IMG/VR virus record: IMGVR_UViG_3300011337_000037
Span: 1 to 26,329 of that record
Direction: 5' to 3' (one strand)
Length of the DNA stretch: 26,329 bases
DNA from: a virus
Lineage: Duplodnaviria; Caudoviricetes
Part shown: positions 19,945 to 25,463 of the stretch, piece after piece
Position numbering within the stretch: the stretch's first letter is position 1
Layout of the letters: each line of letters opens with the position of its first letter
Notes under the pieces: generated by a model
Databases searched by the model: none
Seen by the model: only the letters and a program-made list of their open reading frames with translations
Told to the model about the DNA's origin: nothing
Translations under genes and position numbers: made by a program

Positions 19945-20167
19945 TTAAGTCCTCAAATGCTCTTTCGCTGACTTGTTTTAAGTTCTTCAGCCAAATAAGG
20001 ATTGAATACTCACCTTTTCTGAATTGTAGACTTTTTTCATCTGCAATCGTTGCGATATTATTCAAAGGCTCTATCATTTTGTCAATATCTTCCATTAAAT
20101 CTATCCATCCTTGAGTAGACATCATGTCAAATCGAGCGTCATAATAATTTTGTAGTTCAGGTGTCAT
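19928..20167 (-). CDS. Small head-module protein
   Basis: Helical protein (GWIDLMED...LQFRKG) of the type usually found between portal and scaffold; start at 20167 or 20176. Confidence 0.65.
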   Translation of the reverse strand: MTPELQNYYDARFDMMSTQGWIDLMEDIDKMIEPLNNIATIADEKSLQFRKGEYSILIWLKNLKQVSERAFEDLNEKNV

Positions 20168-21210
20168 GTCATCCATTCTTTATTGGCAAGTAGTCTGGGA
20201 TCATTGGGTTTGAATTTTAAAGCCTCATCAAGCTCTTGCTTTGCCTTATCCTTATACCCAAGATGCCAAGCGGCAATACTGCAAAGGTCGTGTGGTTTGT
20301 CAGACCATGCAGAGGGGTCCATTGTGTAGACCTCCAACTTTTCTTTAATTTTCAATGCCCTATTTGCCGCAAAATAACAAGTCTCCCAATCGTTAGTGTT
20401 GTAGCAGAACATGGCGTAATCTACCCAAGGCTCACGGGTGTTAGCCTCCTCAAGACAAGCGCCTTGATACCATTTCTCAGCCTCTTTGATCTCACCAAGG
20501 CTTTCGTGTGACTTGCCCAAAAGCCTCATAGCATAGCACCGCTCATGGCTCCAAACAGCTTGTGGCATTGTCAGGTACTTTTTGAGCGCAGGGATAGCCT
20601 CTTTCCATTGACAATAAAACGTCAATTCTCTAGCGTAGTAAAAAGCATTGCGGTGGCAATATGGGTCCTCTTTGACCGCAAGTTCTAACAAAGGTAAATA
20701 CTGACTTCTTGACTTTGTTTCATCAGGGTGATGACTTACCAACAACATATCGGTATGTGCGTACACCTCTGGAATTCTGTTATCAGCACGAATGTACTCA
20801 TGGATTGGGTGATGCCAATGGTAGCCATAGCGATGATGGATTTTCTCGCTGTAAAACACGACCCCGTTGCTCCAATCAAACTTGTAGCGCAGACGGGTTG
20901 TGTCGGTTGCCCATACCCGTTCTATCTCTTTTCTCCATCCTGGCTCTAGCACTTCGTCTAAATCAAGAGATATACAAATATCAATGTCAGATGGAAGTAA
21001 GGCAAGTGCGGCATCTCTGGCTTTGTCAAAGCGCCAAGGTTTTACGCATATATCAAACACTCTAGCGCCAGCATTCATTGCTTGCTGAACAGTATCATCA
21101 GTTGAACCTGTGTCAGCAATGACAATCAAATCAGCATCTTTGGCTGAATCACAAAACCGTTTAACGAAATGCGCTTCGTTTTTGCTAATGGCGTAGACAG
21201 CTATTTTCAT
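20164..21210 (-). CDS. Glycosyltransferase family 2 with C-terminal TPR repeats
   Basis: IAVYAISKNE, DTGSTDDT, RFDKARDAAL, LDLDE (DxD) and HE motifs; TPR-like helices (FYYARE, AEKWYQ..REPW, ALKFKPNDPRL). Confidence 0.88.
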   Translation of the reverse strand: MKIAVYAISKNEAHFVKRFCDSAKDADLIVIADTGSTDDTVQQAMNAGARVFDICVKPWRFDKARDAALALLPSDIDICISLDLDEVLEPGWRKEIERVWATDTTRLRYKFDWSNGVVFYSEKIHHRYGYHWHHPIHEYIRADNRIPEVYAHTDMLLVSHHPDETKSRSQYLPLLELAVKEDPYCHRNAFYYARELTFYCQWKEAIPALKKYLTMPQAVWSHERCYAMRLLGKSHESLGEIKEAEKWYQGACLEEANTREPWVDYAMFCYNTNDWETCYFAANRALKIKEKLEVYTMDPSAWSDKPHDLCSIAAWHLGYKDKAKQELDEALKFKPNDPRLLANKEWMT

Positions 21211-21212
21211 AC

Positions 21213-21476
21213 TTAGCAGTTTTCAGCATCCTCAAAACCTACTTGCAGTTTCAGGTCAGCATATAGACCATCCATCAGATTACCCTGTGGAGTTGGGCAA
21301 TAGAAGGCGTGTTGTGCCACTTCTTGAGCATTTGCTTGCCTAGCATCAGCATTGGCAGACACAGACACTTGGTATTGCACCTGATCTTTGTTGCCAAAGA
21401 TGTTGGTTATACGGGCATAAGCGTCTGTGAATGGAACACCGACATTGCTTGTGGGGATAGAGATTTTAAGAGCCAT
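21213..21476 (-). CDS. Small fibre-associated hypothetical protein
   Basis: MALKISI...DAYARI...LYADLK...FEDAENC, translationally coupled to the fibre gene. Confidence 0.65.
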   Translation of the reverse strand: MALKISIPTSNVGVPFTDAYARITNIFGNKDQVQYQVSVSANADARQANAQEVAQHAFYCPTPQGNLMDGLYADLKLQVGFEDAENC

Positions 21477-22714: not shown

Positions 22715-23157
22715 TAGTAATCCCCACCAACAGCAGTCAGGTGGAAACCTGCCGCTACCGCTGTACCAAACGTAGCGTATATACGATAGCTTGGTGCTAA
22801 ACTAATGTTTAAAGGCAAAATAATGTCAGGTAGTTCTGCTGTTTCAGAAACAGTAGTTGATGATAAAGTTCTTTCAAGATAAAGTGCATTATTAGCCGCT
22901 GTACCTGTTGCAGAACCATTGTTCAACCAAATACGAATAACAGTTGCTACGTTAGTGCCAAGCGCTCTAACTTTAATAAAATCTACTCTTGAACCATTAG
23001 TTGCTTCTGCTGTTTCAATTGGGCCATAGATTGTTCCGCTAGTCAGGTCTTTAGTTGTGTTAGCAGTAACACCAGGCGTTGCCGCATTAGCCGCTGCTCC
23101 ACTAACCCATGTATTAGCAGGGATTAGCGGAAAAATAGGGTTTGTATTCTGTGCCAT
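22714..23157 (-). CDS. Putative virion structural protein
   Basis: 147 aa, beta-rich (NTNPIF...GSRVDFIKVRALGTNVATVIRIW...GGDY), coupled within the fibre cassette. Confidence 0.65.
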   Translation of the reverse strand: MAQNTNPIFPLIPANTWVSGAAANAATPGVTANTTKDLTSGTIYGPIETAEATNGSRVDFIKVRALGTNVATVIRIWLNNGSATGTAANNALYLERTLSSTTVSETAELPDIILPLNISLAPSYRIYATFGTAVAAGFHLTAVGGDY

Positions 23158-23928
23158 TTACATTGCTCCAATTGACCAAGATTGTAATTTAGGAATAGGG
23201 GATGATGTACCACCACCGCCACCTGATACGGCAACTGTAACATCCCCACCCGTGTTTGTCGCTGTAACTCCTGTACCTGTGAAGTTTAAACTAGTTAATG
23301 CAGTAGTAAGTGTTGAACCTTCATCTTGAACGGTAATGCTTGGGCCAGTAGGACCCGTAGGTCCAGTAGGACCAGTCAATCCCGTGGATCCTGTCGGTCC
23401 TGTAGGTCCTGTCAAACCAGTTGCACCTGTTGGCCCAGTAGGTCCTTCTGCGCCCGTAAGACCTGTTGATCCTGTAGGCCCAGTTGGTCCGGTCAAGCCT
23501 GTTGCCCCAGTTGGACCTGTCGGACCCGCCGCACCAGTAGCACCCGTAGGACCTGTTGGACCTATCGCTCCAGTATCTCCAGTCGGTCCTGTTGGACCTG
23601 TAAGACCTGTAGCCCCAGTCGGCCCAGTAGCACCTGTCAGTCCTGTAGCACCTGTGGGACCTGTCGGCCCAGTCAAACCTGTTGCTCCCGTAGGACCTGT
23701 TGGACCAGCAACTGTTGAATCTGCTCCTGTGGGTCCTGTTGGTCCGGTGGGGCCAGTTGGTCCTGTCGGGCCAGTAGCGTAAGGCAAAGAATTCCAATTG
23801 CTTGTGCCATCACCAATCTTGAACTTATCCGTGTCAAGCTCAACACCAAGCTCACCCTCTGCTAATAAAGGGTTAACCGAAGTCCATGTTGCGGCTGTTC
23901 CTCTGCGAATTTGAATTTGAACTGTCAT
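23158..23928 (-). CDS. Collagen-like fibre protein with Mtd-N-like N-terminal domain
   Basis: [43 protein letters not shown]-terminus followed by a long (GPT/GAT/GLT)n collagen stretch. Confidence 0.85.
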
Positions 23929-25463
23929 TACACACCACCTGCATCTATTGGGTTAACTCCGCCGTACACGCTGTTGGGATACCCGCCATCAAGGTTAAGC
24001 AAACCTGCGCCAGCCGCACCTGTTGGTCCTATTGCACCTGTTGGCCCTGTAGAACCTGTTGGACCTTGATTACCCGTTGGACCTGTTGGCCCTTGAATAC
24101 CTTGTATGCCTTGGATACCTTGGATACCTTGTGGTCCAGTAGGACCGATATTACCTTGTGGCCCAGTCGGACCGGTTAATCCTGTTGCTCCAGTAGCACC
24201 TGTAGGACCGATAGCTCCTGTAGGTCCTATCATACCAGTTGGACCGGTTGGCCCAATAGAACCGGCAGGGCCAACATCCCCTGTTGGACCAGTTGGTCCG
24301 GTTAATCCCGTATTACCAGTAGTACCTGTTGCGCCAGTTGGACCAATAGCGCCTGTAGAACCAGTTGAGCCAGTTGGTCCTGTTGGACCTACAGCACCTG
24401 TCGGACCAGTTGCGCCAGTAAGACCTGTAGCACCCGTTGGTCCAGTTGGTCCAACTAACTGACCAGCATCTGTCCAAGATGTTCCGTTCCAAACATACAA
24501 ATTTCCTGTGGATTCAACAATATAAGCATCACCAGCCGTATTTCCTGATGATGGTAAATCGCCAACTGTAGCAACAGCACCTTTAATTATGATGCCTTGC
24601 CCTTGTGGACCAGTAGGACCAGTTGGGCCACTTGTTCCCGTAGGACCAGTTGCTCCTGTATTACCTATTGGACCAGTTGGTCCGGTAAGTCCGGTAGAAC
24701 CCGTGGCTCCTGTGGGTCCTGTAGCACCAGTCAAACCTGTAGCACCAGTTAGACCAGTTGCCCCTGTTAAGCCGGTAGCTCCTGTAGGTCCGGTTGGTCC
24801 AGTTAATCCAGTAGAGCCAGTAGGTCCAGTAGCACCGGTTAGACCAGTCGCTCCGGTAGGACCTGTAGGTCCAACAGCTCCAGTCGGACCTTGGATACCT
24901 TGATCACCCTGTATACCTTGTATGCCTTGAACGCCTTGTGGACCTGTTGGTCCTTGTATACCTTGCAAACCTTGAGGGCCTGTCGGACCTTGAATTCCTG
25001 TAGCTCCAGTAGGTCCAATCTGTCCAGTAGCACCTGTTGGTCCAGTCAGACCAGTAGAACCTGTTGGTCCGGTTGGTCCTTGTGCGCCTGTCAAACCAGA
25101 AGCGCCACGCTCACCTACAACTTCACCTACGTTAGTAATAGTGCCGTCAGAAAATGTCAGAATTAAAGAGCCATCAAAGTCTATCTTTGCCCCAACGATA
25201 GAAATACCTGTGTCTCCATCGTCACCGTCTTTGCCATCCTTGCCGTCACGACCATCAACACCGTTTTTTCCTTGCGGTCCAGTTTTTCCGTCAAGACCAT
25301 CCTTGCCATCAGCACCACGTTCACCTTGTGGACCTTGTAGCTTCTTAACTTCGTAGACTTTTGCTCGGATTTCAGGCAGTTCTTTACCAAGTAAAATGGC
25401 AATAGCTGCCAGTTTTGCCTCAGTTGATGCGCCAGACAGCAATATTTTTTTGGCGTCCATCAA
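23928..25463 (-). CDS. Collagen-like protein (multi-segment G-X-Y)
   Basis: Charged GKD/GRD collagen segment and two long G-X-T segments separated by a small globular domain ([16 protein letters not shown]); C-terminal LDGG motif. Confidence 0.88.

Follow-up and report, generated by a model that had tools for sequence, protein, structure and literature searches.

A candidate O-glycosyltransferase co-encoded with Gly-X-Thr collagen fibres in tailed phages

The closest described counterpart of the system considered here is the SgtA/BclA3 pair of Clostridioides difficile, in which the glycosyltransferase (GT) SgtA adds beta-O-GlcNAc from UDP-GlcNAc to threonines of peptides from the collagen region of BclA3 (PMC7157674). 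Phage-encoded GTs acting on virion proteins are known from mycobacteriophage Che8 and its relatives (via PMC11256854, PMC12619734), and virus-encoded modification of a virus collagen is known from the lysyl hydroxylase/glycosyltransferase of Mimivirus, which differs in that the virus is eukaryotic, the acceptor is hydroxylysine and the enzyme is a different one (PMC8968730). Collagen stalks in phage fibre proteins are represented by EPclA, a collagen of prophages of enterohaemorrhagic Escherichia coli, which has a high content of charged residues and needs no glycosylation for stability (PMC3368898). Charged triplets are one route to a stable helix; in the other, (Gly-Pro-Thr)10 stays a random coil unless its threonines carry galactose, according to a 2025 analysis that finds Thr triplets to be anomalously frequent in viral collagens, holds it to be unknown whether glycosylation precedes folding and, in its available portion, names no viral enzyme (PMC11923368). 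Here we describe a phage locus that may provide one. The window, i.e. the whole stretch analysed, is the 26,329-base IMG/VR virus record IMGVR_UViG_3300011337_000037 (Caudoviricetes), the minus-strand late operon of which holds a cassette of six genes encoding two collagens, colA and colB, the proteins b147, sol412 and s87, and a GT2-type enzyme with tetratricopeptide repeats (TPR). On the comparative evidence given below, the GT very probably glycosylates the Gly-X-Thr (GXT) collagens, and there is good support for tailed phages having a real and widespread variant, probably undescribed so far, of collagen O-glycosylation of the SgtA/BclA3 type.

The GT matches PF00535 at 25.6 bits (cut-off 23.3 bits) and TPR families as well, and its predicted model (pLDDT 95) consists of a GT-A domain followed by TPR helices, in agreement with what the first-pass annotation of this DNA, made by a model from the sequence, had read as a GT2 enzyme with TPR repeats. 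The motifs DTGSTD (D33-T-G-S-x-D38), DxD (D83-x-D85-E86) and HE (H137-E138) are present, and D33, D38, D83, D85, E86, H137, E138 and H160 do not vary among 33 sequences that are 35-68% identical. No membrane segment is found, the maximum 19-residue hydropathy being 1.22. A profile search of the PDB with the GT returns, besides TPR matches, only GmaR (4e-11), ThuS and SunS, while a Foldseek search with the model ranks SunS and ThuS first (E 1e-15), with TarS and SpsA also matched. The window enzyme shares with SunS/ThuS and with Listeria GmaR the succession of GT-A domain and TPR helices, and these protein or peptide GTs are its only catalytic-domain matches in the PDB; it differs from them in sequence (15-20% identity), in a TM-score of only 0.42 to SunS/ThuS, and in that their acceptors are a bacteriocin cysteine or flagellin, the latter being the target of GmaR, and not collagen.

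For the comparison with SgtA, 300 genomes of one Bacillota class were searched; matches at E<=1e-20 came from 40 of them and fell into two tiers, and 20 second-tier loci were taken. Locus L753 encodes a 358-residue GT located 78 bases upstream of a 708-residue collagen that bears two published BclA3 peptides (14/16 and 15/15) and is, judging from its sequence, an sgtA-bclA3-type pair, as assigned from the length of 358 residues, the 11 cysteines of the enzyme (10 in PMC7157674) and the two BclA3 peptides in the adjacent collagen. Residues 1-348 of the window GT align to residues 2-353 of the L753 enzyme (24% identity, E 4e-17), and a profile-profile comparison of the window GT subfamily with SgtA-type enzymes extends over 349 columns (probability 100%, E 6.7e-48). 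In a quick, unrooted tree of 77 sequences, which carries a long-branch warning, 20 SgtA-type sequences stand apart on a long starred branch, and the window GT groups with viral and other Bacillota sequences. The window GT is, on these sequences, a member of a sister subfamily of SgtA, outside the SgtA clade, and we infer that it works like SgtA; its assignment as an SgtA orthologue was rejected, the tree placing the SgtA-type set on a separate branch. The phylogeny called for in the first-pass annotation thus yields full-length homology but not membership of the clade.

Taken together, the likeness to the SgtA/BclA3 pair lies in a soluble GT-A enzyme of about 350 residues with C-terminal TPR, homologous over its full length and co-encoded with a GPT/GAT-rich collagen (GPT, Gly-Pro-Thr), whereas the window GT sits on a separate long branch, is part of a phage late operon and lies three genes away from the collagen, and no exosporium Bcl substrate is encoded with it. 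Indeed, the window collagens carry an Mtd_N domain and match tail-fibre PHROGs, i.e. phage rather than spore domains, and the NCBIfam Bcl model finds no match among the window proteins. The first-pass description of a 'spore-like module' therefore has to be qualified, given the position of the GT outside the SgtA clade, the phage domains of the collagens and the fact that the pairing is common in viruses and no peculiarity of this phage.

The Y position of the collagen triplets had been described as overwhelmingly Thr, which is true of colB (42 of 47 triplets, 89%) and only mostly so of colA (73 of 123, 59%). In colA, an N-terminal segment is followed by a charged stub (residues 43-87) made of the first 15 triplets, which are of GKD type (2/15 with Thr), by GXT/GXQ runs at residues 116-289 and 337-486, with short non-collagen inserts, and by an LDGG-containing C-terminal end; outside the stub, the triplets without Thr are mostly GIQ/GPQ. 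Charged residues make up 60% of the stub vs 1-3% of the GXT runs. ColB consists of Mtd_N, the 47 collagen triplets and a conserved C-terminal tail. In the window, 44 matches to the DNA pattern for GPTGxTG are found, all lying within colA or colB, vs none in 100 shuffles. This arrangement fits the two routes to helix stability, with a charged stub that is GT-independent and uncharged GXT runs that are accompanied by a GT; EPclA, which resembles the window proteins in being a phage-encoded collagen stalk of a fibre protein, is to be compared with the GT-independent stub of colA and with the charged-collagen control set described below (GT in 0/49), not with the GXT runs.

Most weight in linking the GT to the collagens is carried by their matched presence and absence within the lineage. 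In a b147-anchored sample (the best 80 of 120 loci), blind to both GXT collagen and GT, 54 loci were callable, of which 12 had both, 42 had neither and none was mixed (11 and 28, respectively, after merging identical b147 proteins); a check of co-occurrence across related phages had been proposed in the first-pass annotation. On the b147 tree the GXT/GT state changes nine times, at least six changes being forced by starred branches, with no more clustering than in shuffled labels (mean 9.8 changes), and on the s87 tree it changes eight times. Independent pairs on the b147 tree agree in 6/6 cases (p 0.031), one vector serving both traits as no callable locus was mixed; Fisher p values of 6e-10 (GXT/GT 2x2) and 7e-7 ignore relatedness and are not relied on. 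With b147-sol412-s87 lying between the collagens on the upstream side and the GT on the downstream side, and with these outer traits staying matched, it seems that the intervening genes are exchanged between the two states. A GT elsewhere in the contig was found in none of 27 whole records searched, most of them lacking both traits (0/8 near-complete).

Among 80 portal-anchored loci, four had both traits, 53 neither and 22 were uncallable, with one exception considered below. Whole contigs of capsid-anchored relatives contained the GT in 0/50 and the GPTGxTG pattern in 0/50 cases, and in 80 capsid-anchored loci the slot between portal and s82 was empty or held varied fibre genes, many of which start with a Thr-free stub, with no GT and no GXT collagen. 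This slot is hypervariable (L330-L409, L679-L749): it is empty in 35 of the 80 portal-anchored loci and, when filled, usually starts with a charged collagen stub of 13-22 triplets fused to varied fibre domains.

The anatomy of the exchange can be read in phages nearly identical to that of the window. L623, which shares its contig with L330, and L624 encode the same capsid protein as the window (320/320) and have the same cassette ends, with neither GXT nor GT; their colA, of 161 residues, aligns to both ends of the window colA and has no GXT runs, and in their colB a non-collagen shaft stands between the retained Mtd_N and C-terminal tail. In GT-less relatives s87 meets s82 directly through an ATGA overlap, as read from the sequences and confirmed by blastn breakpoints, and from base 20167 the DNA again matches that of the window (96.5-99.3% identity in L623, L611 and L622), i.e. 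the GT is a clean whole-gene indel. Thr and Ser together make up a median fraction of 0.28 of the product encoded upstream of b147, both with (12) and without (42) a GT, and because of this equality the GT is seen, at the level of sequence, to track the Gly-X-Thr collagen register and not Thr richness. A paired-loss control in near-identical phages, and a link that is to the collagen register, are what the window newly provides.

The genes between collagens and GT, namely b147, sol412 and s87, lie outside the glycosylation link, because they are also present in GT-less loci. The conserved colB-type tail, by contrast with the shaft, is kept on every shaft type upstream of b147, with G23, P28, L32, W35, I37 and G38 invariant in 31 sequences (at window positions 23161-23220, a Gly linker followed by the invariant P, L, W, I and G), and the gene 5' of b147 nearly always carries it, whether its shaft is collagen or not. 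This suggests that b147 docks onto the tail and that the fibre is modular for this reason; when the conserved 40-residue tail was modelled in complex with b147, the score was 0.00, the partner fold being uncertain. B147 itself (565 clusters at 50%) has no family in Pfam/PHROG scans, and a PDB search with its profile found nothing. Ten phages of Rhodobacter capsulatus have homologues of 47-51% identity, located between the tail genes and the holin gene (L750:6995-7402), which makes these phages a cultured system for a b147-type protein. Sol412 varies among relatives (39-73% identity). In relatives (L023, L028, L033, L037-L040) the cassette, GT included, is also seen next to genes for tail and lysis, and the virion location therefore cannot be read from gene order; together with the tail-side position of the Rhodobacter homologues, this led us to reject as unsupported the placement on the head or neck that had been proposed initially.

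Beyond the lineage, a GT-anchored viral set of 146 loci included 64 with at least 6 kb upstream, and a GXT collagen, taken as an open reading frame with at least 15 GXT triplets, was found in 61 of these 64 (32/35 clusters at 90%). Apparent absence in L020 was rejected, as its collagen spans the join of a terminally repeated contig, and L019, where no collagen was seen near the GT, is a short fragment. In a bacterial set of 80 GT loci, mostly from Bacillota and mostly of 39-47% identity, the collagen was found in 41 (26 of the 45 well-flanked loci; 51/80 on a looser bar), often adjacent to the GT and in a chromosomal context, and 11/20 of the second-tier loci from the SgtA-type search had one. 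Scans of IMG/VR with DNA patterns gave a GPT set of 126 loci (4 of 64 parts) and a charged-collagen control of 121 loci (8 of 64 parts): the GT family was present within 10 kb in 24/77 flanked GPT contigs vs 0/80 controls and, on whole contigs of at least 25 kb, in 22/46 (E<=0.001; 17/46 strong) vs 0/49. The link between GT and GXT collagen across viruses is, in short, strong yet not universal. An actinobacterial genome bin in which the GT adjoins a GXT collagen with an LPXTG-like anchor (L536:3952-6066) raises the possibility that such pairs may serve in vegetative cell-surface proteins too.

GPT repeats are present in each of the four cultured carriers checked. In phage DSL-LC01, two collagens (61-65% Thr) are encoded two and three genes ahead of the GT, which in turn adjoins a tryptophan halogenase (L082:8433-11077). 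The jumbo phages PaBG and Lu11, both of Pseudomonas, Y3 and the Dickeya JA phages carry distant GT homologues (L081, L083, L084, L751, L752); PaBG, Y3 and Afa-NA1 appeared collagen-free in 20-kb neighbourhoods, an impression that was rejected when GPT repeats were found further away. Several of these phages (Lu11, Y3, JA phages) are described as 'hairy' (PMC6143709), and the accessible text of the same paper was found to contain nothing tying the hairs to these collagens.

Several observations weigh against a general and obligate pairing, or against the assignment of function. Besides the low TM-scores to SunS and ThuS already given, GXT collagen is missing near the GT in three of the 64 viral loci (L078, L555, L594) and in 19 of the 45 well-flanked bacterial loci, and, among ten GT contigs with short upstream flanks, the pattern occurs elsewhere in only three, the other seven being 27-83% complete. 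In PaBG and Y3 the collagens are of a mixed GPT/charged kind (7-32% Thr), lie in the tail-fibre region and are far from the distant GT homologue. Conversely, 24 of the 46 whole GPT-collagen contigs lack the GT family, only eight of 19 near-complete GPT-collagen virus records match it, and five of the 19 have neither a GT2 nor a family or SgtA-clade member; one of them, G029 (L155:8306-17079), encodes two GXT collagens of 186 and 338 triplets (about 58% Thr) with no detectable GT2, for which an enzyme of another family, or one of the host, is a candidate explanation. Among the 43 neighbours of GXT collagens scanned against Pfam in the five GT-less near-complete records, there was no other glycosyltransferase, and GXT collagens can thus exist without a recognisable virus-encoded GT2. 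The charged-collagen control set was not habitat-matched and probably differs in habitat and host from the GPT set, which weakens that contrast. Within the lineage, 26 of the 80 b147-anchored loci were uncallable, the contig having ended (11 without GXT and six with GXT where the GT was unseen; six without GT and three with GT where the collagen was unseen). In the one portal-anchored exception, the 14-kb fragment L747 (40% complete), a GXT collagen of 41 triplets is encoded, but the GT is found neither in the slot nor elsewhere on the contig.

In the mechanism that we propose, a soluble GT2-TPR enzyme, gained and lost with the Gly-X-Thr shafts of a swappable fibre cassette, would be expressed alongside the fibre genes in the late operon and act in the cytoplasm, transferring sugar from a host nucleotide-sugar onto collagen threonines. 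The donor would be a host UDP-sugar, because no sugar-synthesis gene was found by Pfam match in the window or in a 10-kb extension of it (35 + 23 proteins scanned) and UDP-GlcNAc is the donor of SgtA. Glycosylation would enable folding of the uncharged triple helices and keep them stable, its main purpose being structural, and colA, colB, b147 and sol412, in this order, would form one trimeric accessory fibre of several segments, distinct from the tail fibre with an S74 chaperone that is encoded at 12283-13848. The whole of this mechanism, with folding as the main purpose, seems to us somewhat favoured by the sequence evidence. More tentatively, and with doubts that slightly prevail, wide use may be made by tailed phages of a portable module of two parts, in which a dedicated O-glycosyltransferase serves Gly-X-Thr collagen as prolyl hydroxylase serves animal collagen, glycosylation being the folding step; in the lineage of the window, fibres would be plug-and-play, with fixed ends, a conserved b147 docking tail and exchangeable shafts, and the phage would be obliged to carry the GT whenever the shaft is collagen.

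Shielding or adhesion remains the main rival purpose, an unlikely one that still deserves serious attention: the same collagens would be glycosylated, with helices that fold without sugar, and the sugar would protect against proteases, aggregation or grazers or offer a surface for adhesion or host recognition. The same co-occurrence data speak for it, some GXT-collagen viruses do without any GT2, glycans of mycobacteriophages act as a shield (PMC11256854, PMC12619734), and the methyltransferase domains fused to some family members, as well as the neighbouring halogenase, hint at decorated glycans. A shield would, however, be expected to be occasionally dispensable, yet none of the 54 callable loci is mixed, and it should suit any Thr/Ser-rich shaft, yet non-collagen shafts equally rich in these residues never carry the GT. 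TPR domains bind proteins, and the GT could be mainly a TPR-based collagen folding chaperone, or its gene, within 5.3 kb of cassette, could simply hitchhike with the collagens on one recombining block; both are improbable, the former in view of the invariant catalytic-type motifs, the latter as it predicts clustering of b147 and s87 by state, which is not seen, and as the pairing also occurs in bacterial chromosomes.

Acceptors other than the collagens have still less in their favour. That the GT acts on another virion protein (capsid, sol412 or b147) is quite improbable: the GTs of mycobacteriophages do modify capsid and tail-tube termini (PMC11256854, PMC12619734), sol412 contains 26% Thr+Ser and the GT homologues of jumbo phages lie near head genes, but b147, sol412 and s87 are present in GT-less loci and the capsid protein is 315-320/320 identical in seven GT-less relatives, an indirect test. 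The mycobacteriophage arrangement, in which several GTs act on capsid and tail-tube termini, is thus not what is found here, where a single GT is tied to collagen fibres. Modification of phage DNA or of the host surface (lipopolysaccharide or cell wall, with superinfection exclusion) is what has been suggested for aquatic-phage GTs (PMC10202952, PMC7029224) and what the database labels of the family, 'beta-1,4-glycosyltransferase' and 'LOS glucosyltransferase', imply; it is the least probable of the readings, as neither target accounts for the match with GXT collagen, the enzyme lies inside a structural operon and its nearest catalytic domains are those of protein/peptide GTs. Pfam scans of the 35 window and 23 further proteins, many of which have no family, match no base hydroxylase, hydroxymethylase or other hypermodification partner making a hydroxylated base, a Mom-family gene being found instead; for serotype conversion of the GtrABC type, the GT lacks a hydrophobic segment and the Pfam scans reveal no flippase partner. 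With these alternatives weighed, the claim that the GT acts on the Thr-rich collagens in the manner of SgtA on BclA3 has, from matched presence/absence, enrichment, SgtA-type homology and a peptide-GT fold, strong comparative support, and remains a prediction as to the reaction itself.

In the main texts of the open-access literature, subscription papers and supplements being outside the scope, no report assigning a phage GT to collagen fibres was found, and a prior report is possible. Aquatic-phage GTs have been read as agents of DNA protection or host-surface change (PMC10202952, PMC7029224, PMC7824862), and the PaBG gene has been labelled LOS glucosyltransferase (PMC7412058). If the proposed function is correct, phage virion glycosylation would be extended from mycobacteriophage capsids to collagen fibres, likely with a Gram-negative host; a very large family now labelled as lipopolysaccharide or DNA GTs (at least 5977 clusters, with an estimated ~3800 IMG/VR stretches matching family patterns) would be re-annotated; and a possible enzyme for making stable, hydroxyproline-free collagen in bacteria would be at hand. 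If the portable-module reading also holds, sugar-coated collagen fibres would occur in thousands of environmental phage types. With the GT as candidate enzyme, colB as a small soluble substrate and natural pairs with and without the GT, the question of whether glycosylation precedes folding becomes directly testable.

The genes of the cassette and its borders are collected in table 1. All six open reading frames of the cassette, which had been described as tightly coupled, are found on the minus strand between the portal and a block of small open reading frame, zinc ribbon, scaffold and capsid genes, as first noted. The junctions are TGATG between portal and colA (-1; ATG at 25460 chosen over TTG at 25463), TAATG between colA and colB, b147 and sol412, and sol412 and s87 (-1 each), TAA-ATG between colB and b147 (0), +2 nt between s87 and the GT, and ATGA between the GT and s82, the start of which is most likely at 20167.

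Table 1. Genes of the fibre cassette and of its two borders in the window.
Feature	Position	Strand	Support
Portal, C-terminal part	25460..26329	-	PF16510 weak, phrog_1216; full 683-residue gene with SU10_portal match in L681
colA, 510 residues, predicted proximal fibre segment and predicted GT substrate	23928..25460	-	73/123 triplets GXT
colB, 256 residues, predicted fibre shaft and predicted GT substrate	23158..23928	-	Mtd_N PF18454 9.9e-14; 42/47 triplets GXT
b147, 147 residues, virus-associated, no known family, likely fibre adapter	22714..23157	-	1556 homologues
sol412, YadA-head-like repeat protein, predicted distal adhesin	21476..22714	-	Feature matches to YadA_head viral clusters 0.94-0.95
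s87, small conserved ORF after sol412	21213..21476	-	phrog_18037 2.9e-6
GT2-TPR glycosyltransferase, 348 residues, soluble	20164..21210	-	PF00535, TPR families, phrog_13126 2e-97
s82, 79 residues from ATG 20167, first conserved gene past the cassette slot	19928..20167	-	Junctions of relatives

According to Pfam/PHROG scans, the order in the minus-strand operon is portal, cassette, two small open reading frames, scaffold, major capsid protein, SU10-type adaptor and head-closure-like protein, further members being the S74-chaperone tail fibre, three large proteins without family, an Rz-like spanin and a GH19 endolysin. The phage reads as podovirus-type, and the spanin points to a likely Gram-negative host. 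No cultured close relative was found, the best capsid matches in the phage collection having about 33% identity. Contig L681 is 99.99% identical to the window over 8,461 bases and extends it 10 kb upstream with terminase, RusA and the Mom-family gene; the latter, a DNA-modification protein, and an RNA polymerase alpha C-terminal-domain-like protein are encoded at L681:699-1379 and 2757-3107.

Within the GT family, members P0048, P0072 and P0100 are fused to methyltransferase domains, and tandem paralogues occur in sugar-synthesis clusters of Bacillota with no collagen nearby (L463:6446-10176). The GT matches in G044 and G020 contain one stop each, and a homologue at G200:C60:837-1868 contains 14 in-frame TAG codons, possibly as part of a recoded phage contig.

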